A stretch of DNA of 64,000 nt from Candidatus Kaiserbacteria bacterium (GCA_016182485.1 JACPGH010000002.1:26608-90607), one strand, 5' to 3'; shown: positions 4,408-34,972, counted from the first letter of the stretch. The notes: generated by a model not told the origin, from the letters alone. Program-made: numbers and translations.

Positions 4408-4524
4408 TCGCGCCAGTATAGCAGTATTTAAGATTGTATTCTCACTTTTGAAAATATCAAAATGGTCCTATAGGACAGAAATGATGAATATACAGCTCTA
4501 AAGGTGCTGAGATCTGCTTCGCGG

Positions 4525-4614
4525 TGCCGAGGGTGGGGGTCGAACCCACATGAAGGTTTTTGGGCCCTCTCAGCGTTTTAAGCGCTGTGCGTCTGCCAAT
4601 TCCGCCACCTCGGC
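4525..4614 (-). tRNA. tRNA-Leu (anticodon UAA)
   Basis: The minus strand reads GCCGAGGTGGCGGAATTGGCAGACGCACAGCGCTTAAAACGCTG...GGGTTCGACCCCCACCCTCGGCA. It shows a 7-bp acceptor stem, a D-arm, an anticodon loop CTTAAAA and a long variable arm. CCA is not fully encoded. Confidence 0.8.
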
Positions 4615-4831
4615 GAAGTGAGGAAGTAAAAAGATGCTAGCATCTTTTTACTCTCCGAACGAGCCGAAGTATGTACTCATACCTCGGCTTGCCCTTCGTA
4701 GCTTTAGCGAAGAAGGACGTACTTTTTATGATACCAGCACTCTGCTATTGTGGAAGAACGGCCCGGTGGCGAAGAAGCAACGCGACGGTCTGCAAAACCG
4801 TTATGCGAGGGTGCGAATCCCTCCCGGGCCT

Positions 4832-5140
4832 CTAGGAATGTTCAGGGTCGAGCAGGAAGTCCACGCGCGGGAGGCGCAAATGCGCCGTGTGATGCTTCAA
4901 ATGATCCGAGAAGGCCTCGCGCTGCCGCTCGAGAAATGCGAGGGCGGCGCTAGTCTTCTCGATAGGAAAAACGCTCACGAACACGTGCATCCGCTCGCCG
5001 TGGGCGACTGACTCCGCGCGGATCACCGTGATGAGGGATTCCGTGCCGGCTTCCTGCGCGATAAAGCGCGCCGCTTCGCGCGCGATAAGCGCGGTAACGC
5101 GGCCGGCCTCTCGAGCGCCGTTTTTTGGGCCGTCCGTCAT
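4832..5140 (-). CDS. rbfA: ribosome-binding factor A
   Basis: Length 102 aa with an RbfA-like sequence. It lies immediately downstream of infB with a 4-nt overlap. Confidence 0.85.
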   Translation of the reverse strand: MTDGPKNGAREAGRVTALIAREAARFIAQEAGTESLITVIRAESVAHGERMHVFVSVFPIEKTSAALAFLERQREAFSDHLKHHTAHLRLPRVDFLLDPEHS

Positions 5141-6606: not shown

Positions 6607-6665
6607 AGTTTCCTTATTTCATCATAAAAATTGCCTGGCCGCAATCCTTTGGGTAGAATCGAGTT

Positions 6666-7862
6666 ATGCGTTCCCGCCGTAAGAGTCATCAGCGAACATA
6701 TCTGGATGCCGCCGCGGGGTGGGACGGGCCTTCGCCACGCCGGAGCGGGCTATGGCCTCGCGGAGGCGGGAATCCGTCGTCGCCGCATGCGGAAGGCCGA
6801 ATGGCCCGAGAGATTCTTGAGGGAGCTCGCACGGTGGTCGCGCGTCTGCTTGAAGTGCAGGCGGACGACGTAATATTCACGAGCGGCGCGACGGAGTCGA
6901 ACGCGCTCGCGATACTGGGAGTTGTAAGGGCTTGCCGCAATCCCGCGGCTCGCCTGCATGTGCTGTATGCGCCCGGCGCGCATGCATCCATCGTTGAGAA
7001 CGTGAAGCTGCTTGCGGCGGAAGGGGCCGAGATCGAGCCTCTGCCGATGCGCGATCGCCAGGTGGACTGCGCCGCGCTCGCGAAACTTTTGCGCCCGAGT
7101 ACAGCACTCGTCACGATGGAGGCCGTCTGCGGCGAGACAGGAGTCATTTGGAATACGCGGGAAGTGGCGAGCGTCATACGCGAGCCATCCCGAGCGCAGC
7201 GAGGGATAATGTTGCATGTTGACGCCTCGCAAGCGCCGCTCACCGAGAAGGTAACGCGCGCGCATTTCGGTGCCGATCTTCTGACTCTTGACGGTTCGAA
7301 GATCGGGGCGGCGCGCGGGGTCGGCGCGCTCATTGCGCATCGCACTATCCCGCTTGCCCCTCTTTATCTAGGCGGCGGTCAGGAGCGCGGCGTGCGGCCG
7401 GGCAGTGAGGCGCCGCATTTGGCAGAAAGCCTCGCCAAGGCTCTAAGTCAGGCCGCGGCCGGCCGCGATGCGTTTCGCATCGCGGCCGAGGCCGCCCGGA
7501 CGGATCTCATTTCCCGCCTCACGGCTGCGATTCCTGACATATATATAAATGAGGGCCGGCCGGGTCGGCAGGTGCCGCACATCTTGAACGTGTCCTTGCC
7601 CGGCCGCGATACGGATTTCCTCGTCGCCCTCCTCGACGAAGCCGGCTTCGCAGTTTCCACAAAGAGCGCCTGCGAGACGGATTCCGAGACTGGTTCTCGA
7701 CCCGTCCTGGTTCTTTTCGGGGACGAAACCCGCGCTCGTTCGACATTAAGGATTTCCTGGAATCCCGAAGCCGATCTCTCGCGTCTCCGCTCTTTCGCGG
7801 ACGCGCTTACGCGAGCAGTCGCATTTTCCGCCGGCGGAGTTGACGATAGGGGCAGTGGGTAG
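6666..7862 (+). CDS. cysteine desulfurase (NifS/IscS family, class V aminotransferase)
   Basis: Motifs YLDAAA, GNPSSPH and FTSGATESNA are present, plus the PLP-lysine motif DGSKIGAARGVGAL. Confidence 0.85.
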   Translation: MRSRRKSHQRTYLDAAAGWDGPSPRRSGLWPRGGGNPSSPHAEGRMAREILEGARTVVARLLEVQADDVIFTSGATESNALAILGVVRACRNPAARLHVLYAPGAHASIVENVKLLAAEGAEIEPLPMRDRQVDCAALAKLLRPSTALVTMEAVCGETGVIWNTREVASVIREPSRAQRGIMLHVDASQAPLTEKVTRAHFGADLLTLDGSKIGAARGVGALIAHRTIPLAPLYLGGGQERGVRPGSEAPHLAESLAKALSQAAAGRDAFRIAAEAARTDLISRLTAAIPDIYINEGRPGRQVPHILNVSLPGRDTDFLVALLDEAGFAVSTKSACETDSETGSRPVLVLFGDETRARSTLRISWNPEADLSRLRSFADALTRAVAFSAGGVDDRGSG

Positions 7863-7878
7863 CATTATAGATATTGTT

Positions 7879-8646
7879 ATGAATATTGAGGAACTTTCTA
7901 AATCTCAGCTCATACTTCTCACTATCCTCGTCAATTTCGTCATGTCGGTCGCGACCGGCATCGTGACCGTATCGCTCCTCGATCACGCTCCCGCGTATGT
8001 CACGCAGACGGTCAATCGCGTAGTCGAACGCACTATTGAGACAGTGGCGCAGGCGGCGCCCGCTGCTATCATTCAGGCGCCCGCTCCGTCCAATCAGGAT
8101 CTCGTCACTGCCGCCATCGGAGCGGGAGCGGCGCGCGCCGTAACCATCTACGCCGCCGAGACGGGCACTTCGACTCCGGCGATAGCGGTGGGCACGTACC
8201 TGCCGAAGGCGCGCGCCATCGCCACCGCCTCCCAGGATGCGTTGCCGAAAGAGGTTCTTATCAGGTTCACTGACGGCTCGCATATCGCCGCCTCGCTCGC
8301 TCATAAGGGCGACGGGATTTCCATTTACGGCTTCGCCGACAAGGCCGTATTGCCGAAAGCCGCTTCTCCTGCGCTCATCTCGCCAAGCGACTTAAAGCTC
8401 GGGCAGACGGTCCTCGCGCTCTCCGCAGACGGTTCGGCCGCGACCGGGATAGTGGCGCGGGTCGATAAGGAAGGTATCCGCACAACGCTCCCGGACATAG
8501 GCGCCGGCAGCGCGGCGGTAGATCTTGCCGGCAACCTGGTCGGCATAGGCGCCGGAGAGACGCCCGGGCTCCTCCTAAGCGCGAATACCGTAATGAATCT
8601 CCTTACCGCCACGTCTTCTGTCGTAGCTCCAGTCTCGGCTAGATAA
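7879..8646 (+). CDS. membrane-anchored protein with a degenerate trypsin-like peptidase fold (catalytic Ser motif not conserved)
   Basis: It has an N-terminal TM helix. The C-terminal half resembles an S1 beta-barrel, but GSAAVD replaces GNSGGP. Confidence 0.45.
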   Translation: MNIEELSKSQLILLTILVNFVMSVATGIVTVSLLDHAPAYVTQTVNRVVERTIETVAQAAPAAIIQAPAPSNQDLVTAAIGAGAARAVTIYAAETGTSTPAIAVGTYLPKARAIATASQDALPKEVLIRFTDGSHIAASLAHKGDGISIYGFADKAVLPKAASPALISPSDLKLGQTVLALSADGSAATGIVARVDKEGIRTTLPDIGAGSAAVDLAGNLVGIGAGETPGLLLSANTVMNLLTATSSVVAPVSAR

Positions 8647-8669
8647 GCATTAACAGCGTAACGTTCACC

Positions 8670-11348
8670 ATGCCTCCTCCTTTCACTAATTTCACAACCA
8701 AAGCCAAGGAAGCGGTCCGCCGCGCGCATGAGCTCGCTATCGAGCGCGGGCAGAACCATGTCTCGCCGCTCCATCTTCTCGCGGCGCTCGTGCTGCAGGA
8801 AGAGTCGCTCGTTTTTTCCATCCTCGACCGGATGGAGATAGACGCGATCATGTTCACCGATGCCGTCCTCGAACAGCTGGAAACGCCCGAGAGCGCGTCA
8901 GTCCTCTCGCCCTCCTACCAGATTTATCTCACGCCGGATCTCGCACAGGCGCTCGAGGCGGCCGGGAAGATCGCCGCGCGCTTGAACGATACTTTCGTCG
9001 GTACCGAACATCTTTTCTTGGCGATAATCGAGCATCCGGGAGTCGCCGCCGACGTTCTCTCGCGCTTCTCTATCCAGCAAGCGTCCGCGCTCGCGGTACT
9101 GAAGGAGCTCAAGACCACTAAGGACGGAAGCTCCGCGGAGCCGAAACGCTTCCGCGCCCTCGCGAAATACGCGCGGAATCTCACCAAGCTCGCCGCCGAG
9201 AACAAGCTTGATCCGGTGATCGGCCGCGACGTGGAAATTAACCGGGTCATCCAGATCCTCGCGCGCCGCACGAAGAACAACCCGATACTTATCGGCGAGG
9301 CGGGCGTCGGCAAGACGGCGATCGCCGAGGGGCTTGCGGCGCGCATGGCCGTAGGCGACGTCCCGGAGACGCTGAAAGGGAAGGAATTGCTCTCGCTCGA
9401 TCTCGGGCTTATGATCGCCGGCACGAAATATCGCGGAGAATTCGAAGAGCGCATGAAGAACGTGATGAAAGAAGTCGAGCGGTCGGAAGGCAAGGTCGTC
9501 CTCTTCGTGGACGAGTTGCACACGCTCGTGGGCGCGGGCGGAGCCGAAGGCAGCCTCGACGCTTCGAATATGCTGAAGCCCGCGCTCTCCCGCGGCGAGA
9601 TCCGCGTCATCGGCGCGACCACGCTCAAGGAATATCAAAAATACATCGAGAAAGACGCGGCGCTCACCAGACGGTTTCAATCGGTGTTCGTGCAGGAGCC
9701 TTCAGTCGAGGACGGCATCGCGATACTGCGAGGGCTCCGCGATAAATATGAGCTCTATCACGGCGTGCGTATCACCGACGGCGCCATCGTAGCGGCCGTC
9801 GAGCTCTCGGCGCGCTACATCAGCGATCGCTTCCTGCCCGATAAGGCGATAGATCTTATCGATGAATCCGCCTCCGGACTGCGTATCGCTCTTGAGAACA
9901 AGCCTCCCTTGCTCGAAGAGACCGACCGCAAGATCCGCCGGCTGGAGATAGAGCGCCAGGCGCTCCAGAAAGACGTCGATGGCGAGCATTCTTCCGAGAT
10001 CAAAGAGCGCATCAAGGATATCGATGTCGAAGTGGCCGATCTTAAAGAGAAGACGGCCGAGCTCGGTCTCAAGTGGAAGAACGAGAAGGAAGTGTTGACC
10101 GAGATACGGGCGGCGAAGAACGAGCTCGAGAAGCTCAAGGTGCAGGCGGAGAAGGCCGAGGCCGCCGCCGACCTCGGCACGGTCGCGGAGATCCGCTACG
10201 GCCGTATCCCGCATATCCAGCGCGATCTCGAGACCAAGCTCAAGCGGCTCAAAACATTGCAGAAATCTCGGCGCGTACTGAATGAAGAAGTTACCGAACA
10301 GGATATCGCTTCTGTGGTCTCCCGCTGGACGGGCATCCCGGTACAGCGAATGCTCGAAGAGGAAGCGGCGAAACTCGCGCGCATGGAGGAAGCGCTTAAA
10401 GCAGGCATCATCGGACAAAATCCCGCAGTGCAGAAAGTTACGAACGCAGTGAAGCGCTCGCGGGTGGGAATCAGCGACCCGAATCGCCCTATCGGCTCCT
10501 TCCTCTTTCTCGGCCCGACCGGGGTAGGGAAGACGGAGCTCTCGAAGAAGCTCGCGGAATTCATGTTCAACGATGCCGACGCTCTGGTGCGAGTGGATAT
10601 GAGCGAATTCATGGAGAGGCACTCGGTGGCGAAATTGATCGGCGCGCCGCCGGGCTACGTGGGCTATGAGGAATCAGGCCTGCTCACCGAGCGCATCCGC
10701 CATCGTCCCTACGCGGTCGTGCTATTCGACGAAATCGAGAAGGCGCACCCCGAGGTTTTCAATATTCTGCTCCAGGTCCTCGACTCGGGGCACTTGACCG
10801 ACGGTAAGGGCCGCAAGGTCAATTTCAAGAACACGATCATCGTGCTGACCAGTAACATCGGCGGGGAATTCATCGATAAGTTGGCGCACATCGGCTTCGG
10901 GACGGCTGGCGCCACCGACGCGTCGCGTTACGAAGAGACTAAGGAGAAGATAATGAGCGAGCTGCGCGAGCACTTCCGCCCGGAATTCTTGAACCGCCTG
11001 GACGACATCATCATCTTCGACGTTCTCTCGAAGGAGGCGCTGGCCGAGATAGTGCACAATCAGGTGGAGGAGGTCGTGAAGCGGCTCGCGCACAAGCGCA
11101 TCACGCTCGTCATCTCGCCGGAAGTCCGTACGTGGCTCGCCGAGAAAGGATACAATCCCGAATACGGCGCCCGGCCGCTGCGGCGAACTATTCAGGATAA
11201 GATACTCACGCCGCTCGCATCGCTCATGGTCTCGCAGGGCGTGCTTGAGGGCGGCACGGTTGCAGTCAGCGTGAGGAACGACGAGCCGAGTTTCGAAGTA
11301 AGAAAGAAAGTGCGAGCGGGCCTTAAGAAAGAAGCCGCGGTTGCCTAA
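8670..11348 (+). CDS. clpB: ATP-dependent chaperone ClpB
   Basis: Length 892 aa. It has two AAA+ modules (GEAGVGKT; GPTGVGKTE) separated by a long coiled-coil middle domain. A Clp N-domain is present. Confidence 0.95.
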   Translation: MPPPFTNFTTKAKEAVRRAHELAIERGQNHVSPLHLLAALVLQEESLVFSILDRMEIDAIMFTDAVLEQLETPESASVLSPSYQIYLTPDLAQALEAAGKIAARLNDTFVGTEHLFLAIIEHPGVAADVLSRFSIQQASALAVLKELKTTKDGSSAEPKRFRALAKYARNLTKLAAENKLDPVIGRDVEINRVIQILARRTKNNPILIGEAGVGKTAIAEGLAARMAVGDVPETLKGKELLSLDLGLMIAGTKYRGEFEERMKNVMKEVERSEGKVVLFVDELHTLVGAGGAEGSLDASNMLKPALSRGEIRVIGATTLKEYQKYIEKDAALTRRFQSVFVQEPSVEDGIAILRGLRDKYELYHGVRITDGAIVAAVELSARYISDRFLPDKAIDLIDESASGLRIALENKPPLLEETDRKIRRLEIERQALQKDVDGEHSSEIKERIKDIDVEVADLKEKTAELGLKWKNEKEVLTEIRAAKNELEKLKVQAEKAEAAADLGTVAEIRYGRIPHIQRDLETKLKRLKTLQKSRRVLNEEVTEQDIASVVSRWTGIPVQRMLEEEAAKLARMEEALKAGIIGQNPAVQKVTNAVKRSRVGISDPNRPIGSFLFLGPTGVGKTELSKKLAEFMFNDADALVRVDMSEFMERHSVAKLIGAPPGYVGYEESGLLTERIRHRPYAVVLFDEIEKAHPEVFNILLQVLDSGHLTDGKGRKVNFKNTIIVLTSNIGGEFIDKLAHIGFGTAGATDASRYEETKEKIMSELREHFRPEFLNRLDDIIIFDVLSKEALAEIVHNQVEEVVKRLAHKRITLVISPEVRTWLAEKGYNPEYGARPLRRTIQDKILTPLASLMVSQGVLEGGTVAVSVRNDEPSFEVRKKVRAGLKKEAAVA

Positions 11349-17855: not shown

Positions 17856-17958
17856 TGTGCACAGTATAACCTTTCCACGCATATGCACACTTCATGAAGT
17901 GCTAGCCCCCGCTTAAAACACGGCGGGAAATGGGCCTCCTAAAGCGTCGGGAAAATAC

Positions 17959-18531
17959 CTAAAAAGTCTCTAGAGCAAGCCTCGCGCCGACGACAAACGA
18001 AAACTCCTTTTTGGCTTCGGCTTCTTCTTTAAGTTGTGAAAGCAGCGACGAGCGCAGGGGTTCGTTAGTACGAAAACACTTATCTATGGCCTTTTGTATG
18101 CGATTTAGCAGCTCCTGTCGGCGCTCTAAAAGTTCGGTCCGATTGAGCTCAATGTCGATAATTGTTAGTTCACCCCTCTCACTACCACCCCTCTGGAAGA
18201 TATATGCCCCTGAAGCCACTACAGAATCATTCGGATCTTCCGAGTAAGGGTTAATATACGGCATTCTATCCTCGTACTTGGTCCCTTTGGCGTTATTGCA
18301 TCGCTGGCAGACGAAACCGAGATTATTCCACTCGAACTCGAGTTCAGGATATCTACCCTTAGGCTGGATGTGCTCGACATCGCCAAATGATGTATCTCTG
18401 ACGTAGGCTTCGCAGTACATACATTTACCACTGGAGGCATCGATTAAAGCCGCCTTGTTATCTGCGTGCTTATAATCGCCAGCCGTAAGTCGGTCAGGTC
18501 TTGGACAGGTCGGGCGATGCAGTCTGATCAT
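17959..18531 (-). CDS. ptuB: HNH endonuclease, Septu PtuB-like
   Basis: Length 190 aa with CMYCE...DVEHIQPKG...FVCQRCNNAKG (His-Me finger). Its start overlaps the stop of the upstream ATPase gene (ATGA). Confidence 0.65.
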   Translation of the reverse strand: MIRLHRPTCPRPDRLTAGDYKHADNKAALIDASSGKCMYCEAYVRDTSFGDVEHIQPKGRYPELEFEWNNLGFVCQRCNNAKGTKYEDRMPYINPYSEDPNDSVVASGAYIFQRGGSERGELTIIDIELNRTELLERRQELLNRIQKAIDKCFRTNEPLRSSLLSQLKEEAEAKKEFSFVVGARLALETF

Positions 18532-19754
18532 TGCGCTTTATCTTCAGCCAGACGATAAATCGCTTCCGGCATCAATCTTTCGAGGCCTATCTCTTTCAAT
18601 TTGTCGCGCATCCGCAGGAGATCTTCTTTGGTAAGGTCCTTCTTCTCAGTATATTCTTTAGTGATTCGTGCCAGATCCTCTTCTGCCCAGATTGGCATCG
18701 TAAAGCTGACACCGAGCACTTCATCCAAAACCTCTGTTGCGGTTCTTGGTTTATCAACCAAGTCAAGCACTTCAGAGTAAACTTTTCCCTCCTTATACCT
18801 GAGTGCTACCACGGTAGAATCACGCACTGATGTCACAATAAGGGGACTGTGGGTACTTATGACAAATGATGCCTTCGGGAAGGCTTTCAAAAGATCTGAG
18901 AGTATCCTCCTCTGCATAGTCGGGTGTAGATGATTTTCCACCTCGTCAATTACGACAACGAAATTATCACGCTTATCGGTTGAGAACATATGTATTTGCC
19001 AAGCCAAGTCAATCATCGTGCTGATTCCACCTGATGCCGCATCAAGAAGGAACTCTCCACTGTCGCAGCAAAACACTATTTCTTGATCCCGGATCTCAAG
19101 TTTTCTAAAACCAAGACTTTTTGGCAGAACTACCTTAAGTACATTTTCAAAATCACGAAAATGCTGTAATAAATCCTCTCGTCCCGGCATAACTGGGTTC
19201 CCATAACCAAAGATATTCCAAGAAACCAGAATCTCTTTCATATGGTAGCTCGATGGAGCACCGCCGCCACCTGAGTAACGATTGCGTACGCTCTCTGATA
19301 TCCTCAAAAAAGCGTCCTCCTTACTAAAGGTTTGGCGCAGCGGCAGGCTGCCCAGCTGCTGATAATTGAATGTCGACCTGTGCGAGGGGATAAAGAATCC
19401 CTCCACATTTTGCTGCCCCCTTATAGTCAGAGTGTATTGTGCTTGCCCAACCAATGGTGCGTGAAGCACAGCTTTTACATCATCGTCATAGATAATTTCG
19501 CCAACATCGTCGCTTGATTTATCCAAGAGGCCCGAAAACCATTCGAGTGTGGAAGTAAGCAGATTCTTTCTAGGAACAGCAAGGCTCATAGAAGACCAAC
19601 CGAAGTGAGAAGCCAAAATGCTCTTGAGAATTGTGGTTTTCCCACTACCGTTGGCACCGGTAATGATAGTCATCCGCCGATGAAAAGGGATTTCAATATT
19701 CCCAAACTGTTGCCACCCTGTGATTTTCAGTTTCTTAAACATATGTTCAATCAT
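18528..19754 (-). CDS. ptuA: AAA_21/ABC-type ATPase, Septu PtuA-like
   Basis: Walker A is GANGSGKTT, the signature-like motif is ASGGIS, Walker B is VVVIDEVENHLHP, and the H-loop is STHSP. Paired with the HNH gene in a lower-GC region. Confidence 0.65.
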   Translation of the reverse strand: MIEHMFKKLKITGWQQFGNIEIPFHRRMTIITGANGSGKTTILKSILASHFGWSSMSLAVPRKNLLTSTLEWFSGLLDKSSDDVGEIIYDDDVKAVLHAPLVGQAQYTLTIRGQQNVEGFFIPSHRSTFNYQQLGSLPLRQTFSKEDAFLRISESVRNRYSGGGGAPSSYHMKEILVSWNIFGYGNPVMPGREDLLQHFRDFENVLKVVLPKSLGFRKLEIRDQEIVFCCDSGEFLLDAASGGISTMIDLAWQIHMFSTDKRDNFVVVIDEVENHLHPTMQRRILSDLLKAFPKASFVISTHSPLIVTSVRDSTVVALRYKEGKVYSEVLDLVDKPRTATEVLDEVLGVSFTMPIWAEEDLARITKEYTEKKDLTKEDLLRMRDKLKEIGLERLMPEAIYRLAEDKAQ

Positions 19755-19820
19755 TGTAACGCTTTTTAAGAATCCAGTACGCCTTATTTTCTATCGGTTG
19801 GAGTTTGTTTGTCATACAGA

Positions 19821-21401
19821 TTACGACACCCATTCCTCTCTTATTCTCCAATCAGTCCTTGGAAACATACTGAGATTAGAAGCCACCATTGTGCTACGCG
19901 GGTCGTCGAACGAGATCGTGACTGAAAACGATCCGTCAGCGTTACGTTTCGGTCGTGCAGAGGAGGCCTTGCTGTACATTTGATACTTTAATCGTAATTC
20001 GACACCATCGTCTTTCTTTTTGAACTTGTTCATTAGAACATCTATCTCATCAAGTGCAGCTCGAATTGTCTCTGGTTTGTTATCACCTAAGTAGTAGGTA
20101 CCATCATAAAGTGCTGCAGAACCACTTTGATTTTCGATTTTTTCAATCTCCAAGTACTTATTTTTTGACCAAAATGAACGTGAATATTTTTCTCCGTTAA
20201 ATAGTGGCGTATTACTTTTGATAACAAACTCGATTGCTCTATGGCCAGTTGCGTAGATGTAAAACAGACAGCCCTGAACTTCTTTGTCGAGTGTTGCTTG
20301 TTGCGCCTTGTGTTGAAGAGCAGAACTATTTCTCCTGAAGAGTATAGGAAACCAATAACCGATCCGGTTATATCTAGTTCCTCCTTGATCAAACGGTTTT
20401 CCATCAACTTTCCATTCGGTAGCAGCTTCATACGCAGCTAAATCACCGACATTCATTACCACGCCTTCTTCCTCCACCATAATATTTAGTCCCATTGTCC
20501 CCTCGTATTTCTTTCGCTCGAACATCGCATAATTTCCATTCGGGAAATGCATTTTGAATCCAGTAAGACCCTCATCCGGAGTTGACAGGAACTCAAGGAC
20601 TTCGAGGTCACGCATTATTCTGTATTTAGAGCCACTAGCTAGTCCCTTTCGTACTTGCTTATAAGTTATGAAGAACGCTGAATAAAAAGCGAAGCACCGA
20701 GAAAGCATATCTGACAACTTCTCAAGACTGATTGATCTGGCACCAATATCCGCACCTTCAATGATACGGAACTCTTCATCAGAGATCGTGTAGTCGGAAT
20801 GATAAAAGGCATTTCTTACTTCATTGTTGAAGAATCCGTCAATGATCTCCCCGATTCGTTCCTCGCCCGACGCAGCCGCCAATTCTTTTATGTAGCTGAT
20901 CTTTTGTCTTGGATATGGCAAATGTCGTCTTGGGAAAAGGCCTTCGGTTTTCCGTTCGACTGTAACCAAATGATCAAAAGGATACATTTTGTATGGTTGG
21001 TCCATACAACATCGCAGTAAGTTTGTTATGACTTCATATGGAGCTGACATTTCGGTTGAATGGCAGTAGAGAAATAGCGCCATTCTTAGCGCCCTCTTCT
21101 CTTGTCCTTTTCCCATTTTCCGCATCATTTTGCTGAAGTCCATTGCGGTATCTTCTGCTTCTACGAACGCATCCCAATGTCCGTCGGTGATTCCTTCTAC
21201 ACGAAGGATTGTGTAGAGATACGTAAAGCCATTTGTATCGCCAGCACGACTGAACAAATGATTGAAATATTCGAGATATTCATCTGTATATTTAGAGAGT
21301 AGGGTCGTGTCTCGTGCGCGCAACCATTTGCGAATCTTCTTTGTGGGCCAAGTCGCGATGTCTCTCATTTCCATAGCTAAGCCATTATTTTCTGCAAGCA
21401 C
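19821..21401 (-). CDS. hypothetical protein in the defence island (N-terminal helical region with HEPN-like R-x4-H motif VRNAFYH; C-terminal ~300 aa of unknown fold)
   Basis: A long ORF of lower GC, co-oriented with and tightly packed between hsdS and ptuA. I recognise no domain beyond the Rx4H motif. Confidence 0.7.
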   Translation of the reverse strand: MLAENNGLAMEMRDIATWPTKKIRKWLRARDTTLLSKYTDEYLEYFNHLFSRAGDTNGFTYLYTILRVEGITDGHWDAFVEAEDTAMDFSKMMRKMGKGQEKRALRMALFLYCHSTEMSAPYEVITNLLRCCMDQPYKMYPFDHLVTVERKTEGLFPRRHLPYPRQKISYIKELAAASGEERIGEIIDGFFNNEVRNAFYHSDYTISDEEFRIIEGADIGARSISLEKLSDMLSRCFAFYSAFFITYKQVRKGLASGSKYRIMRDLEVLEFLSTPDEGLTGFKMHFPNGNYAMFERKKYEGTMGLNIMVEEEGVVMNVGDLAAYEAATEWKVDGKPFDQGGTRYNRIGYWFPILFRRNSSALQHKAQQATLDKEVQGCLFYIYATGHRAIEFVIKSNTPLFNGEKYSRSFWSKNKYLEIEKIENQSGSAALYDGTYYLGDNKPETIRAALDEIDVLMNKFKKKDDGVELRLKYQMYSKASSARPKRNADGSFSVTISFDDPRSTMVASNLSMFPRTDWRIREEWVS

Positions 21402-22943
21402 TGAATGTTTTCTCGCATTTCTTGGACTTTCTCCACTATCCGTTTCTGCTCAGCGAGAGGAGGGAGCGGCATCGGAATTGGGTAAACACTTATTCCTGAA
21501 ATGACCGGTTGCGCGGAGCCTCGATGGGAGGATCTTAGATTTAAATAATTCAGAACGAGCAAAAAGAACTCCTTATCTAAAAAGTTTTCTGGATAACTAA
21601 CTATAAATGCATTGTCAGTTACCCACGCGTCAGATTCTGTAATATAAGCAGTGCCGCAAAGAGCGCCCACACGCCCTATAACAATCGTTCCCCTTGCTGC
21701 GTTAGAGGATGAGTGACGACCTGCTATGCCATTCCCTCCATAGACGAGATATGGTCCTTCAATGGCCTCGCTAACTTTCAGGGAATCGCCTGAGGATATG
21801 TTCATAACATCTCCAAGGCGAACCCACCTCCACGAAGCTGGGATATTAAATGGCGTGTCTGATGCACTAACAGGAGGAAGAAGTTTTGTTGTTTTGCGTT
21901 TCCGACCGGTGCTTAAGGTCTTTAAGCGCTCTTCTCGAATCTTAAGTAGTAGCTCCTCAGCTGTACCTTCCTTGGCATTTTGCAGGACCAGCTTGCCAGA
22001 CACAGCAAGTGTGAGAACTGCGTTCTCGAGTTCTTTGATATCCGATGGTGATTTTACCAACTCAAATAGATACTGAAGAGGCAGTTTACTGTTGCCATCC
22101 CTGAGATCTCTCATCGCACTTCGTGTAAGACGTGTACGTACTGCGTCTCGTTCTTTCTTTTTCGCCTCTAGCTCGTCAAGGCTGCGCATTACGTCCTTGA
22201 TCTTATCCACCATTCGATCCTGCTCACCAGAAGGCGGTAGAGGTATCTCAATCAGAGGCAATGTGTCGCCATTAAGCGTACGCCCCTTAATGGCATTCGA
22301 CGTTCTTCCGGTTAAATCTAGCGCCGGTAATATATGAAATAAATAGTCTCGTAGAGTTTGGTCAGGACTTATGAACGCTGCAATCGCCTCGTTATGACAC
22401 GCGTCCATCTCTAAAATAGACATCTTACCGATGGTCAGCTTAAAACTAAAAAGCAGGGACCCCAGCGGGGCTTTATAACCACGGAATACTTCCTCCAAAG
22501 CAAGTTCGTTAATGGATTCTTTCGTGGAGTGAATTGTGCTGCCATTTATCAAGTCGGAAATGGAAACCCAAGGAGTGTCTGCGGCTGACCAATACTTGGA
22601 TTCAACGCGCGGCGGTGTTTTCCCCACGCGAAACTCGACGATGTCACCAAGTCGAACCCATTTCCAAGAAACCGGGACCTCAAATGGTACCTCTGTCTGA
22701 TCGACAGGTAATAAAGATTCTTTTCTGCGTCTTCGACCATTCTCGGCAACACCCCGCTGCAATCGTTCACTCTGAATCTTCGCATAGAGCTCTTCTCCCG
22801 TGCCTTCCTTCGGGTCGTGCGGAACTAGCCGTCCAGAGACGGCAAGGGTGAGGACTGCTTTACGAAGACGCTCTATGCCGTCAGGCAACTCTAGAAAGTC
22901 ATCTAGGTTTGCGACGATTGTACGTACATCATTTAGTTCCATT
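21377..22943 (-). CDS. hsdS: type I restriction-modification system specificity subunit
   Basis: Two target-recognition domains are separated by conserved coiled regions (LAVSGRLV...; LAVSGKLV...). The MELNDVRTIV start is preferred. It overlaps hsdM. Confidence 0.85.
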
Positions 22944-24374
22944 GTGCGAGAGGGCGCCCTCCAAAAGCGCTCTGATTTTATCCAGTGCTTTCTTGGTTTC
23001 CTCCTGCTTGGTGCGATAGGTAGCAAGAAGCTCTTCAGGGGATTCGACCAATTCCTTCGGGGCACGAGGATTTTTAATATCAAGGTTGTAGTTCCTTGCC
23101 CGGATCTCGTCGATGGATACTTTCCACGCCTGTCCGTTTTCTTCGCGATTGTTCCACCACACCTTTTCCGGCGCGAACTCATCAACGCTCATAGGATTCG
23201 TCATCGAGTAAGCCTTCTGTCCTTTCGGCAGCGGATGCTCGTAGTACCAGATCTCTTTGGTCGGCTCGCCCTTGGTAAAGAAGAGGAGATTCGTGGCTAT
23301 ACTGGTGTAAGGAGCGAAAACGCTCTTGGGTAAGCGTACGATGGTATGCAAATTACACTCCTCGAGGAGCATCTTCTTGAGTGCGGTTTTCATTCCTTCG
23401 CCAAAGAGAGTGCCGTCGGGTAGAACAACGCCGCAGCGGCCGTACTTCTTGAGCAATCGTACGATAAGCACGAGAAAGAGATCTGCTGTCTCTCGCGTTT
23501 GAAACTCGGTCGGGAAGTTCTTCTCGACGCCCGGCTCCTCTGTGCCGCCGAAGGGAGGATTGGTAACTATGCAGTCGATGCGGTCAGCGTCTGTATAGTC
23601 GCGCAGCGGCTTCTCGAGCATATTGCCGCGGCGCATTGTGACTGGCTCCTCAATGCCGTGGAGCATCATATTCGTGATGAGGAGCATATACGGGAGCGGC
23701 TTCTTCTCCACGCCGTGAATGCTTTGCTGGATTTTCGCTTCGTCTTTGACGGTCTTTACTTGTTTACGGAGGTGCTCAAGCGAGTTTACGAGGAATCCGC
23801 CGGTGCCGGCTGCCGGGTCAAACACCGATTCGCCAACCTTCGGGTCAATCATCTCAACAATGAATTGGGTAACGGCGCGAGGCGTATATAGCTCGCCGTA
23901 GTTCTTTGCGCTCTGAAGGCTCTTAAGAAGACGCTCATAGACCTCGTTGAAAGCGTGCCGATCCTTTGAGGTATTGAAGTCGATCTCGTTCACCTTGTTG
24001 ATGACTTGCTTCAGTAGCGTTCCCTTGCGCATAAAGTTGTTCACGTCTTGGAACGCCATACGCGTAAGCTCTGTACGCTGATTACCATTAGTCGGTAGTG
24101 CACGCAGAGCAGGAATTAGGTCTCCGTTTACGAAAGCAACCAACTGCTCACCGGTCAGCCCATCAAGCGGAGCGGCCCACGTGCGCCACTGATACTCTTT
24201 CGGCAGTGTTGGTGTATATTTTTCCTTCCGTATCTCCAGAGCCCTATCTTCGTCGTCAAGGATCTTCAAATAGATGAGCCAAACGAGTTGCGAGAGGCGT
24301 TGCGCATCTCCGTCTACGCCGATGTCTTGGCGCATTATGTCCTGTATGGCTTTGATGGTAGCGGGGGTGAACAT
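22929..24374 (-). CDS. hsdM: type I restriction-modification system DNA methyltransferase subunit
   Basis: Carries the NPPFGG motif, an AdoMet-binding DPAAGTGGFL motif and an N-terminal HsdM domain. Confidence 0.9.
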   Translation of the reverse strand: MFTPATIKAIQDIMRQDIGVDGDAQRLSQLVWLIYLKILDDEDRALEIRKEKYTPTLPKEYQWRTWAAPLDGLTGEQLVAFVNGDLIPALRALPTNGNQRTELTRMAFQDVNNFMRKGTLLKQVINKVNEIDFNTSKDRHAFNEVYERLLKSLQSAKNYGELYTPRAVTQFIVEMIDPKVGESVFDPAAGTGGFLVNSLEHLRKQVKTVKDEAKIQQSIHGVEKKPLPYMLLITNMMLHGIEEPVTMRRGNMLEKPLRDYTDADRIDCIVTNPPFGGTEEPGVEKNFPTEFQTRETADLFLVLIVRLLKKYGRCGVVLPDGTLFGEGMKTALKKMLLEECNLHTIVRLPKSVFAPYTSIATNLLFFTKGEPTKEIWYYEHPLPKGQKAYSMTNPMSVDEFAPEKVWWNNREENGQAWKVSIDEIRARNYNLDIKNPRAPKELVESPEELLATYRTKQEETKKALDKIRALLEGALSHNGTK

Positions 24375-24377
24375 ACG

Positions 24378-24527
24378 TTAGACGATATAGACATTATCGA
24401 GGAGTTCATCCAGCATCCGGAGATATTCATCCTTACCGCCAAAAAGAGAGACGAGTTCGTAATCCGTACCGAGAGAACGAATCGGCTCGAGAGTAAGAAC
24501 ACGTACGCTTTCAATATCCTTGAGAGG
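24378..24527 (-). pseudogene. hsdR: displaced C-terminal segment of hsdR in the +1 frame
   Basis: The alternate frame encodes PLKDIESVRVLTLEPIRSLGTDYELVSLFGGKDEYLRMLDELLDNVYIV* (a typical HsdR tail, FGG...Y). It stops 4 nt before the hsdM start. Confidence 0.6.
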
Positions 24528-26718
24528 CTACGTGCATAATGAGGTCGAACAGATCGAACTCACCACCTACTTGTTTCTGGAGCTCCTCAAGGGGGATTCC
24601 CGTGGCGTCGAGCTGGTCGATGATAGCTTGCCTGCGTTCGGCGGACTGCCAAGCCGTAAAGAAGCTCTCGAGGGTCGGATAGTGATTGAGAATATTCTTG
24701 CGCGTGAAGTCGGTCAGGGATTCGGTTATGAGCTTGCCGTCGGCACCCAAATACTGCACCTGTTCCTTTACGATGGCATAGGGAACGCCGCTTATCGTAT
24801 ATACCGGCGGCCGCCCGATAGGACCTCCTTCTCCGGGACCTGTGATGATCACATCCACGAGCTCGTCTTCCTTTTCTTTTACTTCGATTGGCTCATCTGT
24901 CGGATCTAGCTCTTTCAACACACAGTCGATGTCGTCGTTCTCTCCCACTTCAAACACGCGCTCAGGCACTCCGTCGAATCCGGGGTCAGCGAAAAGTTTC
25001 GTTACGCCCTGAAAATCCATTACCGTGAACCACATTTTGCCTTTATCCTCGCGCACGCGCGTGCCGCGGCCGATGATCTGCTTGAACTCGGTCATACTCT
25101 CAATCGGCTTGTCCAAGACGACGAGCTTGCAGGTTTGTGCATCCACGCCAGTCGAAAGAAGTTGCGAGGTCGTCGCGATTGTCGGGAAGCGCTCTTCCGG
25201 GTCAATGAAGCGGTCAAGCTGATTCTTGCCCTCCTCGTCGTCTCCGGTGATGCGCATTACGTAGCGCACGTTCTCCCGAGCGCGGTCGCCGCCCGCGTTC
25301 ACGAGCGCAGAGCGCATTCGCTCGGCGTGTTCGGTGGTACGACAGAAGACGATAGTCTTTGCGAACGGATCGTCAATCGCGTCCAAGTACTCGATTATCT
25401 TCTTGGCTACCAGCTCATCGCGCTGCGGGAAAATGACCGACTTGTTCACATCGCGAAGCTCATAAATGCGGTCTTCTACAGCATTCCCTTTATCATCCAG
25501 CGTCCCCGGAGAAGGTCGCCATCCGGTAATGTCGTTATCAAGAAGCACACGGAGCACCTTATAGGGAGCAAGGAATCCATCGTCAATCCCTTGTTTCAAT
25601 GAGTATGTGTAAATGGAATCTCCGAAATAATGAGTGGTACTGGTGTCAGTCGTCTCTTTCGGGGTCGCGGTCAGACCGAGGTGAGCTGCGCTCGTGAAGT
25701 GTTCAAGCACCTCGTGCCACTCACTATCAAGTGAGGCACTGCCGCGATGGCATTCATCTACAATAATGAGGTCGAAGAAGTCGGCGGGAAGTCTCTTATA
25801 AAGCTTATCCGGTTCTGTTGGTCCGCTCATAGCCTGATACAGACCGAGGAATATCTGATGCGACATCAGCTTGCCTAGATCGTCGAAGTCGGAGCGAGAT
25901 ATTTTTGTAAGCGCCTCACCGAAATGCTTCAGATCATTTATACGAGCCTGATCAACAAGGATGTTGCGGTCTGCGAGAAAGAGGACGCGCTTTGCGTTTC
26001 CAGACTTCCACAAGCGCCACATAATCTGAGCTGCGGTGTAGGTCTTACCCGTGCCCGTGGCCATAACGAGTAGAAGGCGTCTGCCGCCACGCGCGAAAGC
26101 TTCAACAGCTCGGTCAACGGCGATGCGCTGGTAGTAGCGAGCAAGTTTTATCCCGTCGCCATAGTATTCAGTCTCGACCGCTGAACGTACGGCCGTATTG
26201 TCGCCCTTCCACGCGAGATACCGCGCGTGAAGCTCTGCTGGTGCTGGGAAAGAATCAAGCTCGATCTTCTGTTCTGTCGAGGCAGATTGCCCTGTGCGAT
26301 CGTGAAAGAGGAACGCTTCGCCGTTCGTTGAAAATACAAAAGGCACCTCAAGTGCCGCAGCATAGCCAAGTGCCTGCTGCATACCCGCGCCGAGCGGTTT
26401 GCCGATGTGTTTCGCTTCCACTACGGCGAGAGGCATATTCGGCCGGTGTTCAAGCAGAAAATCGACCTTCTTCCGGTCCCCGCGCTTTACTGTTTTTCCG
26501 CTAACGTGAATACGCCCCTCTGTATAGGCGTACTCTTCCCGTATCTGAGTGTCAGCCCATCCCGAACGCACGATCGCCGGCCTAATCAGGCGATTCCGTG
26601 TTTCTTCCTCGTTTGCGGGTTCTGTGGGCAAGATAAGGCGTATTTTCCCACATTTTTCGTCTTCATTCAATGCTAATAAAAGCGTACTCCGAAATGTCCT
26701 AAGCAGCGATTCTGACAT
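24511..26718 (-). CDS. hsdR: type I restriction enzyme R subunit (frameshifted near C-terminus)
   Basis: It has the N-terminal nuclease domain (VVEAKHIGKPL), SF2 helicase motifs (ATGTGKT, DECHR) and the C-terminal EFDLFDLI motif. Length is only 735 aa. The C-terminus continues in another frame. Confidence 0.85.
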   Translation of the reverse strand: MSESLLRTFRSTLLLALNEDEKCGKIRLILPTEPANEEETRNRLIRPAIVRSGWADTQIREEYAYTEGRIHVSGKTVKRGDRKKVDFLLEHRPNMPLAVVEAKHIGKPLGAGMQQALGYAAALEVPFVFSTNGEAFLFHDRTGQSASTEQKIELDSFPAPAELHARYLAWKGDNTAVRSAVETEYYGDGIKLARYYQRIAVDRAVEAFARGGRRLLLVMATGTGKTYTAAQIMWRLWKSGNAKRVLFLADRNILVDQARINDLKHFGEALTKISRSDFDDLGKLMSHQIFLGLYQAMSGPTEPDKLYKRLPADFFDLIIVDECHRGSASLDSEWHEVLEHFTSAAHLGLTATPKETTDTSTTHYFGDSIYTYSLKQGIDDGFLAPYKVLRVLLDNDITGWRPSPGTLDDKGNAVEDRIYELRDVNKSVIFPQRDELVAKKIIEYLDAIDDPFAKTIVFCRTTEHAERMRSALVNAGGDRARENVRYVMRITGDDEEGKNQLDRFIDPEERFPTIATTSQLLSTGVDAQTCKLVVLDKPIESMTEFKQIIGRGTRVREDKGKMWFTVMDFQGVTKLFADPGFDGVPERVFEVGENDDIDCVLKELDPTDEPIEVKEKEDELVDVIITGPGEGGPIGRPPVYTISGVPYAIVKEQVQYLGADGKLITESLTDFTRKNILNHYPTLESFFTAWQSAERRQAIIDQLDATGIPLEELQKQVGGEFDLFDLIMHVASQGY

Positions 26719-26743
26719 CGCGAATCACGCGGAGCCATTTCGT

Positions 26744-26979
26744 CTATGCAACGCGTATTTCGAGATCTTTGATATGTCGTGCTTGGTCGTCAAGTTCAGG
26801 TCGGACAACCTGGTCTATGCGTTGATGCACTTCATGCACGGCTGTTTCCAACTTATCCATGCGGCCTTCAAGTCTATCAAACCGTTTATCAACCTCGTCG
26901 AACCGCTCGTTCATTGCCGAGAATCCGTCCGCTACCATACGCGCAAGGCTATCAATATCATTTTCTTGCTCCTTGGCCA
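26744..26979 (-). CDS. small coiled-coil protein leading the hsdRMS array
   Basis: MAKEQENDIDSLARMVADGF...DKLETAVHEVHQRIDQ. Length 78 aa. It sits directly upstream of hsdR on the same strand. Confidence 0.5.
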
Positions 26980-26987
26980 TTGCCCAT

Positions 26988-27192
26988 AGCTTACCACGAC
27001 AACCACGACCACCCTCACCGAAGCGCAGAAAATATACGATACCAATACAGACAACCGCATCGACGTGCTCGACTTCAATGCGCTCATCGTGCATTGGGGC
27101 GAGACGGGGGCGAATGCCGTTGCCGACTTCGACAAAAACGGAGTCGTGGACGTGTTCGACTTCAATTCATTAATGGTGCACTGGACCGCGTA
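26988..27192 (+). pseudogene. orphan dockerin-domain fragment (C-terminal piece of a truncated gene)
   Basis: The frame opens after a stop at about 26985 with no plausible start. It encodes a T-rich linker plus two dockerin-type Ca-binding repeats (DTNTDNRIDVLDFNALIVHW; DFDKNGVVDVFDFNSLMVHW). Confidence 0.5.
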
Positions 27193-27226
27193 ACCCCGTT
27201 AGAAATATAAGATTACATAAACAACT

Positions 27227-27988
27227 ATGAACACACAACCGAAAAAAATTTCTAACGGGGTGAAAAAGATACTTCTTGCATCCGCATTACTCGCAGCTCT
27301 CGTCCCTGTCGCCGCATTCGCTTCATCTATAACGCTTGCACCCGCGTCGGTTGCGACAACTGAAGGCAAGTCCTTTAGCGTCGCGGTCGCCGTAGATCCA
27401 GCTTCGGGGAAGGCGTACACGGCGCGCGCGAATCTCTCCTTCGACCCGTCGGCAGTAACTCTCGTCGGCTTTTCCTTCGCGCCGAAATGGATGCAGCTGC
27501 CTCAGGAAGGTTATGACCTCGAAGATAATGCCGGAGGCAAGCTCGCGAAGACGGGCGGCTATCCCGGAGGCATTACGACAGCCACAGTCCTTGGCACGGC
27601 TACGTTCCGCGCCAAGACCACTGGCGTTACGACCATCTCGGCAACGGGGGATTCGCTCATCCTAGATGCCAGCAATCAAAACGCGGTTTCCGGAGCGCAA
27701 GGCTCGGTGCGGGTTTCTATAGCGGCCGTGCCGGTCGCGCCGCAGCCCGCAGCGTCTACAGAAACCGCGCCCATTGTCTCGACTGCCGAAGCGGTGCCCG
27801 CCACCACGACGCTCGATCTGGCAGAAGCAGTCACCGAAGCTGGCACCGCAGTAGCGCTCTCGCCGCTCGATTCCTTTCTCACTCTCGGCACGGGCAGCGC
27901 CGCAGTCGCCTCGCTCGTAACGCTTATCGTCCTTCTCGTCGTTGGCGCTGGCATCTGGCTCTGGCGCCGCGAACGGGCTCGGTATTAA
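27227..27988 (+). CDS. cohesin-domain protein with signal peptide and C-terminal TM anchor
   Basis: Has a signal peptide, a cohesin-like beta-sandwich (SITLAPASVATTEGKSFSVAVAVD...YTARANLSFDPSAVTLVGFSF), an Ala/Thr/Pro linker and a TM helix with an RRERARY tail. Confidence 0.65.
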   Translation: MNTQPKKISNGVKKILLASALLAALVPVAAFASSITLAPASVATTEGKSFSVAVAVDPASGKAYTARANLSFDPSAVTLVGFSFAPKWMQLPQEGYDLEDNAGGKLAKTGGYPGGITTATVLGTATFRAKTTGVTTISATGDSLILDASNQNAVSGAQGSVRVSIAAVPVAPQPAASTETAPIVSTAEAVPATTTLDLAEAVTEAGTAVALSPLDSFLTLGTGSAAVASLVTLIVLLVVGAGIWLWRRERARY

Positions 27989-33283: not shown

Positions 33284-34972
33284 ATGACCCAAGGCGAGGC
33301 GCTCTCGATTCTCAAGACCGGCGCGAACGTATATCTCACCGGCGAGCCGGGAAGCGGCAAAACGCACGCGATAAATGAATTCATCGCGTGGCTGCGTCTT
33401 TCAGGGATAGAGCCGGCTATCACGGCCGCGACCGGCATCGCGGCGACGCACGTCGGCGGCATGACACTGCACTCGTGGAGCGGAATCGGCATTGCCGAGT
33501 CGCTCTCGCGCGCCGATATAGATCGCATCGCCGGGAAGGAGCATGTCGCCCGCAGGCTCCAAAAAGCCTCAGTGCTTATCATCGAAGAAATCTCCATGCT
33601 CTCCGCGGCGACATTCGAGATGGCGGATGCCATTTGCCGCGAAGCGCGCCGTGCCGAGCTCCCATTTGGCGGGCTCACGGTCATCCTCGTCGGAGACTTT
33701 TTCCAATTGCCGCCTGTGGCGCGTGTTCAGGCGATGTCCGTGCGCTTCGCTTACGCTTCGCCCGTTTGGGACAAATTAAACCCGATCACCTGTTACCTAA
33801 CAGACCAATATCGGCAGGATGATGTTGAATTTCTTGGCGTACTCTCGGCGATACGCGCCGGAGAGGTCGAAGAGGCTCATTATGAAGCGCTCATGGCGCG
33901 GCATACGGAGCCTGGCACCCCGCCCGCCTGCGCTCCGAAATTATTTTCGCATAATGCCGACGTCGATCGAATAAACGCGCAGGAACTCGCGAAGCTACCG
34001 GGCAAAGCGAAGACTTTCCGGATGAACGCGAAAGGGAAGGAGCAATTTGTAGAAGGGCTGAAGCGCGGGTGCCTCTCGCCGGAAATTCTCGAACTGAAGG
34101 AGGGCGCGGCGGTCATGTTCACGAAAAACTCTCCCCAAGGGAAGTTCGTCAACGGGACGCTCGGCGTTGTCGCGGGTTGGAGCTTCGATGGCTCGCCGAT
34201 TGTTGAGATACGCAGCCCCTCGACAAGCTCGGGACATCGGTTCCGCGTAACCGCGGAACCGATGGAATGGCAGCTTGAGGAACAAGGGAAGGTGCGCGCG
34301 AGTATCTCGCAATTGCCCCTACGGCTCGCCTATGCGATGACAGTCCACAAGAGCCAAGGAATGAGCATGGATGCGGCGGTCATCGATCTCTCGAAAGCCT
34401 TTGAATACGGGCAGGGATATGTGGCGCTCTCGCGGGTGCGGCGATTAAGCGGAGTGCATCTCACCGGCTTAAACGCGCGCGCGCTCGAAGTCCATCCGGA
34501 AATTCTTGAAAAAGACAGGGAATTCCGCGCCGCGTCTGACGCGGCGCGGGAAGCATTTGCGGCTCTGCCAAGCGCCGAGCTCGCAGGCATGCAGAAAAAA
34601 TTCGTCAAAGCCATAGGCGGCGCTTGGCCCAATCCCTCGCAATCGCTCGGGACGGCCCGGCAGCCCGGCTCGGCCGGGCTGCCGGGCCGTCTGGCAGAAA
34701 CCCTGCAGACCGTGCGGGATGCGAACGATTTAAATGCAGCGGCGAAGGCGCGCGGACTCACCGTTTCCACCATCGTGAAGCATTTGGAAGAACTGGCCGA
34801 AATAGGGAAGCTCGCCAGCGCTGATTTCGAGCACCTTATTTCTCAAGGCGAACTGCACGAGATCGCCGAAGCCATAGAAGCTGCCGGCCGCGAGCGCCTC
34901 TCGCCCGTTTATCATGCGCTCGGCGGCCGGCACTCATTCGAAACTATCCGGCTTGTCCGCCTTCTCAAGTAA
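33284..34972 (+). CDS. Pif1/RecD-like SF1 DNA helicase with C-terminal helix-turn-helix domain
   Basis: Walker A is GEPGSGKT and Walker B is IIEEISML. Pif1 family motifs are present (QLPPV; VHKSQG). The C-terminal HTH is TVSTIVKHLEELAE. Confidence 0.8.
   Translation: MTQGEALSILKTGANVYLTGEPGSGKTHAINEFIAWLRLSGIEPAITAATGIAATHVGGMTLHSWSGIGIAESLSRADIDRIAGKEHVARRLQKASVLIIEEISMLSAATFEMADAICREARRAELPFGGLTVILVGDFFQLPPVARVQAMSVRFAYASPVWDKLNPITCYLTDQYRQDDVEFLGVLSAIRAGEVEEAHYEALMARHTEPGTPPACAPKLFSHNADVDRINAQELAKLPGKAKTFRMNAKGKEQFVEGLKRGCLSPEILELKEGAAVMFTKNSPQGKFVNGTLGVVAGWSFDGSPIVEIRSPSTSSGHRFRVTAEPMEWQLEEQGKVRASISQLPLRLAYAMTVHKSQGMSMDAAVIDLSKAFEYGQGYVALSRVRRLSGVHLTGLNARALEVHPEILEKDREFRAASDAAREAFAALPSAELAGMQKKFVKAIGGAWPNPSQSLGTARQPGSAGLPGRLAETLQTVRDANDLNAAAKARGLTVSTIVKHLEELAEIGKLASADFEHLISQGELHEIAEAIEAAGRERLSPVYHALGGRHSFETIRLVRLLK

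Follow-up and report, generated by a model that had tools for sequence, protein, structure and literature searches.

A probable mosaic defence island with a candidate new HEPN-like gene family in Candidatus Kaiserbacteria

Island extent and composition

The region of approximately 9 kb described here lies on a 64,000-nucleotide (nt) stretch of DNA from Candidatus Kaiserbacteria (GCA_016182485.1 JACPGH010000002.1:26608-90607; hereafter the window, with positions counted from its first letter) and is probably a horizontally acquired mosaic defence island. It would comprise three autonomous modules, namely a type IB restriction-modification (R-M) system, a single gene here called X and a stand-alone Septu pair, lodged in a variable chromosomal slot between a native flavin adenine dinucleotide (FAD)-linked oxidase gene and a cohesin/dockerin cluster. 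Seven consecutive, co-oriented open reading frames (ORFs) on the minus strand fill positions 17959–26980. The original prediction, made from the sequence of the window alone, had recognized the same gene set and the same starting position, but placed the end one base short, at 26979.

The same prediction described the seven genes as richer in AT than their flanks, and the composition of the region bears this out. The GC content of the island is 0.485, as against a mean of 0.580 (standard deviation 0.011, minimum 0.556) across the other 9-kb windows, placing it about 8 standard deviations under that mean. GC content at third codon positions (GC3) is 0.42–0.50 in hsdS, X, ptuA and ptuB and 0.60–0.64 in hsdR and hsdM, with flanking genes at 0.61–0.86, which indicates that two compositional strata are present within the island. 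The seven genes are thus a mosaic of independent modules and not one unit, because GC3 falls into these two strata and because the closest relatives of the Septu proteins PtuA and PtuB are stand-alone pairs.

A search with the FAD oxidase as query retrieved 80 related loci (63–79% identity), none of which carries the seven-gene block. Horizontal acquisition is supported by this absence of the block at the corresponding locus in related Kaiserbacteria, together with the truncation of a dockerin gene at the right edge of the island. Acquisition of a defence island had been proposed beforehand, and both the deviant composition and the absence of the block beside the FAD oxidase in relatives agree with that proposal; the opposite pattern, a block conserved at native GC content across the lineage, was seen at none of the 80 loci.

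The junctions between the genes are tight. The stop of hsdM is overlapped by the start of hsdS over 14 nt, and ptuA and ptuB share a 4-nt ATGA (18528–18531), both as originally read. The overlap of about 25 nt proposed for hsdS and X holds if X starts at a GTG codon (25 nt), but with the ATG start annotated by NCBI the two genes are separated by a 2-nt gap. Scans for sigma-70 promoters and intrinsic terminators returned scores no better than those of shuffled sequences and were uninformative on operon structure.

The bulk of the island is ordinary, in that type I R-M and Septu systems are well known and the clustering of defence genes is expected. The anti-phage repertoire of the Candidate Phyla Radiation (CPR)/Patescibacteria, which are tiny episymbionts, is poorly charted, and this locus represents a mosaic island in a variable slot with one module already decaying.

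Type I restriction-modification system

The assignment of HsdRMS to a type I R-M system was confirmed through profile searches, which identify an hsdR-hsdM-hsdS set of the EcoAI type (IB). The restriction subunit encoded by hsdR (24511–26718, minus strand), truncated to 735 amino acids (aa), passes the NCBIfam EcoAI/FtnUII model NF046051 with 921.3 bits against a cut-off of 550, and is 49–56% identical to plasmid-borne HsdR proteins of the EcoAI family. The 481-aa N6-adenine methyltransferase encoded by hsdM (22929–24374, minus strand) matches PADLOC MTase_I (4.1e-201) and Pfam N6_Mtase (3.8e-74) and HsdM_N, and its translation contains the motifs DPAAGTGGF and NPPFG. The 521-aa specificity subunit encoded by hsdS (21377–22942, minus strand) has two target-recognition domains, with matches to PADLOC Specificity_I (3.8e-75) and, on two stretches, to Pfam Methylase_S. 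The gene order is that of the EcoAI/EcoEI family (type IB), from which the window differs in that its HsdR is without the second half of the EcoEI_R_C domain and in that X and ptuAB follow hsdS.

The hsdR gene is not intact. The match to NF046051 spans only model positions 2–678 of 768, the match to Pfam EcoEI_R_C only positions 1–76 of 163, and full-length plasmid homologues are 786–787 aa long compared with the 735 aa found here. In tblastn searches, the in-frame HsdR match ends at ...FDLIMHVA, beside the stop codon at 24511–24513. When C-termini were used as queries, the last 41–46 residues of Rhodococcus and Pseudomonas HsdR aligned to a second frame in the seemingly intergenic gap before hsdM (E values of 4e-08 and 7e-10). 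This out-of-frame remnant of the hsdR 3' end (24378–24527, minus strand) corresponds to the last ~45 residues of the EcoEI_R_C domain, and ~46 codons are absent between the two matches. Read from these alignments, the lesion is a deletion of ~140 nt combined with a frameshift within the C-terminal domain, by which the end of EcoEI_R_C has been removed.

As hsdR has lost ~46 codons and its reading frame in the C-terminal domain, restriction is probably impaired, and may be either weakened or lost, while methylation is probably kept because HsdM and HsdS look intact. The same 735-aa ORF was called in two independent assemblies. Two points speak for caution over a decaying module: all assemblies with the lesion derive from one sampled population, and the 735-aa HsdR may keep some activity.

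Gene X

Gene X (19821–21374, minus strand) encodes a protein of 517 aa, or of 526 aa if the upstream GTG at 21401 is the start, and represents a candidate new, uncharacterised family of defence genes. The protein is 100% identical to NCBI entry HYV30_00560, for which the start is annotated at ATG. It has no match in the Pfam, NCBIfam, PADLOC or PHROGs libraries and does not fit the profile of a described HEPN family. A word-indexed search returned 78 homologues, all of them unannotated, and an exhaustive profile search extended the family to 1022 clusters (clustered at 50% identity) at E ≤1e-3. Members are ~300 aa (N-terminal domain only), ~500 aa or ~650 aa in length, with a few carrying an HTH_17 fusion. 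Full-length forms are found in CPR lineages, and relatives consisting of the N-terminal domain only occur in Alphaproteobacteria, Planctomycetes, Actinobacteria and a Woesearchaeote. Relatives of X were present in only 1 of 2.9 million viral contigs.

Two kinds of variant were observed within the family. Longer forms of ~640–680 aa (P0081, P0095, P0115 and P0168) possess an extra C-terminal region with sub-threshold matches to MauJ (PF17419), which were not used, and some short forms (P0086; L020 9749–10885) carry an N-terminal HTH_17/MerR domain.

A confident structural model was obtained for X, and its architecture consists of an N-terminal HEPN-like domain at approximately residues 1–250 followed by a C-terminal alpha/beta domain that has no known relative. 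The N-terminal domain contains the motif R187-N-A-F-Y-H192-S-D (RNAFYHSDY), of which the R-x4-H element is invariant in 57 close and 25 distant relatives and in alignment A5. Residues R187, N188, H192 and S193 are invariant, as are E72, R97, Y103, E108 and N118. Structural matches include the non-catalytic HEPN domains of HI0074 and Roquin. In a comparison with the minimal HEPN toxins of HEPN-MNT toxin-antitoxin pairs (PDB 8xdj, 7ae2 and 5yep), sequence identity is ~9%, the N-terminal domain of X is double the size owing to additional helices and beta-hairpin insertions, and no MNT-like antitoxin gene is adjacent to X. A sequence-profile search of the PDB with X gave nothing below an E value of 0.26.

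The position of X within type I operons is recurrent. X lies directly 3' of hsdS in the window, at loci L010/L017, L016 and L021 and on the P0070 contig. The order at L010/L017 and L016 is hsdM-hsdS-X-hsdR with gaps of 8–12 nt, L021 has hsdS-X, and the P0070 contig has hsdS-X-OLD-type ATPase/TOPRIM-hsdR. Between L010 and L016, identity is 77% for X, 75% for HsdM, 73% for HsdR and 33% for HsdS, so that the divergence of X has kept pace with that of HsdM and HsdR. Between L021 and L010, X retains 56% identity and HsdM only 26% (HsdS 25%), which suggests that the embeddings are independent; at L021, X sits in a different type I family, whilst the system in the window is of type IB. Judging from these comparisons, X appears to have been embedded in type I operons on at least three or four independent occasions.

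Elsewhere, homologues of X are found beside Mrr, AIPR, DpnII, Eco57I-type methylase, SduA_C, SLFN or TIR genes or a serine recombinase, and N6_Mtase-type genes lie within 5 kb of X at 11 of 37 non-redundant loci. On the P0070 contig, the X homologue is short and is followed by a fused ABC-ATPase/OLD-TOPRIM gene in the type I operon, so that, with PtuAB in the window, there are now two cases of an ABC-ATPase plus nuclease directly 3' of X.

PrrC and RloC are anticodon nucleases of the HEPN type whose genes lie within type I R-M operons, and the order of the EcoprrI locus is hsdM-hsdS-prrC-hsdR. At L010 and L016, X occupies exactly the position of prrC, between hsdS and hsdR with gaps of 8–12 nt. 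X shares both an HEPN-type R-x4-H motif and embedding in type I operons with PrrC and RloC, and a latent ribonuclease (RNase) coupled to R-M would be a plausible logic. There are, however, clear differences: X is without a P-loop or ABC-ATPase domain, its HEPN-like domain is N-terminal and not C-terminal, and the C-terminal domain of X bears no relation to theirs. There is also no sequence similarity between them and many members of the X family are not embedded, so X may work in a similar manner but is not a member of that group.

A second point of comparison is the "guilt by embedding" approach of Payne et al. (2024), in which an embedded HEPN protein, HEC-08, was validated (bioRxiv 10.1101/2024.01.29.577857). 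HEC-08 combines a DUF3644 HEPN domain with zinc ribbons, and its defence depends on the histidine of an Rx4-6H motif (bioRxiv 10.1101/2024.01.29.577857). Both proteins are encoded by a single gene that is found inside defence systems with a methylase, and both have an N-terminal domain, HEPN in HEC-08 and HEPN-like in X, ahead of a C-terminal domain of unknown fold. X differs in that it matches neither DUF3644 nor any other Pfam family, in that its C-terminal domain is alpha/beta and not a zinc ribbon, and in its CPR-centred host range. The contexts in which X occurs match the guilt-by-embedding idea (bioRxiv 10.1101/2024.01.29.577857) and recall the position of prrC.

From these likenesses a mechanism can be proposed. 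The N-terminal domain of X would be a latent HEPN RNase that aborts infection when triggered, and the C-terminal domain would be a sensor or regulator that responds to infection or to failure of the R-M system. The repeated position of X inside type I operons suggests that it would serve as a backup or guard for R-M, as PrrC does. More broadly, and tentatively, X may found a widespread family (~1000 clusters at 50% identity) of unrecognised HEPN effectors, centred on the CPR/Patescibacteria, that guard R-M systems. In such effectors the C-terminal domain could detect either that the R-M complex has been lost or inhibited or that a phage anti-restriction factor is present, and so free an infection-aborting RNase, in a PrrC-like arrangement that would have evolved independently and without an ATPase.

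Several results weigh against this proposal. Around 70% of the loci of the X family have no type I genes nearby, and a guard relationship is therefore not obligatory. A Foldseek search of the full-length model of X against the PDB gave no match at E ≤0.001, and no Pfam HEPN model matched either X (E values up to 10) or 25 distant relatives of its N-terminal domain (E values up to 5). In addition, superposition of R187 and H192 on the catalytic residues of the HEPN matches could not be confirmed.

It could be argued instead that X is an accessory or regulatory R-M protein, such as a modulator of HsdS or HsdM, a restriction-alleviation factor or a DNA- or RNA-binding regulator, in which the RNxxxH motif would have a structural role or bind a ligand, as it does in HEPN domains without catalytic activity. 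This would be consistent with the presence of HI0074 and Roquin among the structural matches, with the lack of any catalytic family that matches X, with the N-terminal HTH_17/MerR DNA-binding domain of some relatives, and with invariant residues (E72, R97, H105, E108 and N118) that exceed the minimal HEPN motif. We nevertheless consider an accessory role unlikely. X neighbours a variety of unrelated defence genes, and also occurs alone in defence islands, which fits an autonomous effector better, and its RN...H motif is strictly invariant over a range of 27–100% identity, which is typical of catalytic HEPN domains.

X merits attention on several grounds: it has no annotation in the libraries, it offers a residue pair to mutate (R187/H192), its family numbers ~1000 clusters, and it recurs after hsdS in unrelated type I systems. 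Should X be confirmed as an R-M-linked RNase, it would be an ATPase-free counterpart to PrrC/RloC and would extend guilt by embedding to uncultivated lineages.

Septu pair and organization of the island

The two genes at the left end of the island are ptuA (18528–19754, minus strand), encoding a 408-aa ABC-type ATPase, and ptuB (17959–18531, minus strand), encoding a 190-aa HNH nuclease. The type I Septu system (PtuA/PtuB) was reportedly described by Doron et al. in 2018. PtuA matches PADLOC PDLC00290 (7.8e-150) with residues 5–406 covering profile positions 2–412 of 414; it exceeds the cut-offs of Pfam AAA_21 and AAA_15, also matches AAA_23 and SMC_N, and contains Walker A (GANGSGKT) and Walker B (VVVIDEVE) motifs. 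PtuB matches PADLOC PDLC00337 (2.1e-61; profile positions 38–206 of 216), Pfam HNH (7.3e-08, 32.9 bits against a cut-off of 21.4) and HNH_5. The reading of an AAA_21-type ATPase paired with an HNH nuclease as Septu is thus upheld by both PADLOC profiles, and reassignment of the pair to a non-defence family was not seen. The nuclease had further been called TIGR02646-like, which is not sustained, as that model was matched only under its cut-off (37 against 52.15).

The NCBIfam equivalogs were likewise not passed, with PtuA scoring 109.5 against 500 for NF041760 and PtuB 43.8 against 150 for NF041761. These two models and TIGR02646 describe a subfamily linked to retron Ec78, and the scores fit a different Septu subfamily with no retron link for the PtuAB of the window. 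What is shared with type I Septu is a two-gene overlapping unit in which an ABC-type ATPase (AAA_15/AAA_21) precedes an HNH nuclease with catalytic motifs intact; here, by contrast, there is no reverse transcriptase or non-coding RNA nearby, the host belongs to the CPR, and the pair stands at the end of a type I operon.

In Septu homologues, the ATPase and the nuclease assemble into a complex by which DNA or tRNA-Tyr is cut upon infection (PMC13096335, PMC12673091), with structures and tRNA-Tyr cleavage described in PMC12819146, PMC12673091 and PMC13096335. PtuAB would act independently as such an ATPase-nuclease complex. The closest relatives of PtuA, at 61–67% identity, all belong to two-gene PtuA+HNH units that have no X and no type I genes next to them, which suggests that the Septu pair is autonomous. 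A conserved three-gene system of X and PtuAB was also considered and was rejected, as the nearest PtuAB units are without X.

A further alternative is that the six or seven genes work together as a single Hma- or MADS-like system, in which methylase, specificity subunit, ATPase and nucleases would cooperate, with X and PtuAB as obligate partners of the R-M enzymes. All of the genes are co-oriented with overlapping or near-touching junctions, secondary PADLOC and NCBIfam matches to MADS mad2, mad3 and mad5 were found, and the X homologue on the P0070 contig is again followed by an ABC-ATPase-plus-nuclease gene (OLD/TOPRIM) in a type I operon. Embedding of Septu in Hma systems is, moreover, already known (bioRxiv 10.1101/2024.01.29.577857). 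Scores for MAD2, MAD3 and MAD5 were, however, 93.6, 39.1 and 18.6 against cut-offs of 720, 420 and 400, respectively, with the standard type I and Septu models scoring far higher. The closest relatives of PtuAB stand alone, X is without PtuAB at every other locus examined, and hsdRM is set apart from hsdS-X-ptuAB by GC3. An integrated system is accordingly quite improbable, and a mosaic of independent modules is the reading retained here.

Insertion site and neighbouring genes

The left boundary of the island is a 70-nt spacer (17889–17958) between the stop codon of ptuB and the native FAD-oxidase gene, across which GC content climbs from ~0.47 to 0.58–0.60. At the right breakpoint, directly after a stop codon, positions 26990–27193 (plus strand) hold an orphan 3' fragment of a dockerin gene, encoding a Thr-rich, poly-Thr linker and two dockerin repeats. 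An intact dockerin protein of 211 aa is encoded on the related metagenomic contig L054, directly upstream of a cohesin homologue, and the fragment in the window is 82% identical to its last 57 residues (155–211). The N-terminal ~145 codons were found nowhere in the window. The suggestion that a dockerin-bearing gene was disrupted is thus supported, in that only those last 57 of 211 residues remain. Either the arrival of the island or a later rearrangement would have removed the 5' two-thirds of the gene. L054 was rejected as an empty site, as its cohesin and dockerin genes are convergent with the FAD oxidase, and its sole use was to supply the intact dockerin gene.

Amongst Kaiserbacteria (L049–L128), the slot between the FAD oxidase and the homologue of the window gene at 33284–34972 ranges in length from 0.2 kb to over 9 kb (e.g., L066 9761–9974 and L049 1–9461). 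In L066 and L078 this homologue lies only 0.2–0.35 kb from the FAD oxidase, and in other relatives the slot measures 1–9 kb, frequently has a lower GC content and is filled with other cargo. The slot of the closest relative, L049, contains a 5-methylcytosine (m5C) methylase, a PD-(D/E)XK nuclease and a 1067-aa LCAT/MBG surface protein. The slot may be a hot spot at which accessory and defence genes recombine.

One set of negative results argues against an acquired island, in that no integrase, tRNA gene (none within 5 kb of the island) or direct repeat marks it. A search of the island ends for flanking direct or inverted repeats returned only short matches at chance level and the internal dockerin duplication, in agreement with the earlier inspection by eye, in which no flanking direct repeats were found. 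That the low-GC block is native and ancestral, or else a chimera of assembly or binning, is still hardly credible: the lack of an integrase, att-like repeats or an adjacent tRNA, GC3 values for hsdR and hsdM near the low end of native genes and a metagenome-assembled genome would each accord with it, but two Logan assemblies, independent of each other, repeat the junctions on both sides within contigs of 18.7 and 11.6 kb, the block is absent at more than 20 related FAD-oxidase loci, and the neighbouring dockerin gene is truncated.

The remaining ORF of the island, at its right border (26744–26980, minus strand), encodes a 78-aa coiled-coil protein that is 100% identical to NCBI HYV30_00580. 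It had been taken for a leader gene of the type I system, a role that could not be upheld. Sixteen homologues were found (42–66% identity). In other CPR genomes of high GC content (e.g., L132 6001–6258 and L135 6001–6267), the homologue is flanked by LemA on one side and NUDIX/M48 genes on the other, close to RecG and away from any R-M genes. A function as an R-M leader or controller was therefore rejected on account of these housekeeping LemA contexts, and the ORF is not counted as an R-M component. Homologues in LemA contexts are also ~50% GC, and no LemA gene was found in the window. From its homologues, the ORF is seen as a conserved CPR gene at the breakpoint, apparently carried along and detached from its LemA context, that now abuts the dockerin remnant.

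Other features were observed around the borders. A perfect 14-nt palindrome, CACTTCATGAAGTG, occupies 17888–17901, at the 5' end of the FAD-oxidase ORF and the left border of the island. On the other side, a perfect 14-nt inverted repeat, ACCCCGTTAGAAAT / ATTTCTAACGGGGT, is located at 27193–27206 and 27248–27261, with its arms 41 nt apart on either side of the cohesin start codon (27227). On L054, a 2153-aa ORF with immunoglobulin-like repeats (4489–10950, minus strand) is directly upstream of the intact dockerin and cohesin genes, an arrangement that suggests a cell-surface cohesin-dockerin assembly in Kaiserbacteria. On a 585-kb contig from the Joint Genome Institute (L005 8001–13947), an X homologue with 60% identity is directly followed by cohesin and beta-helix/dockerin genes, neighbours that recall the cohesin/dockerin surroundings in the window.

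Further along the window, at 60213–63138 (minus strand), there are two adjacent ORFs of 533 and 483 aa that resemble FAD-dependent phytoene desaturases (CrtI-type), as assigned by eye from their translations, with a lower GC content of ~0.54. To our knowledge, CrtI-type genes are unusual in a CPR genome.

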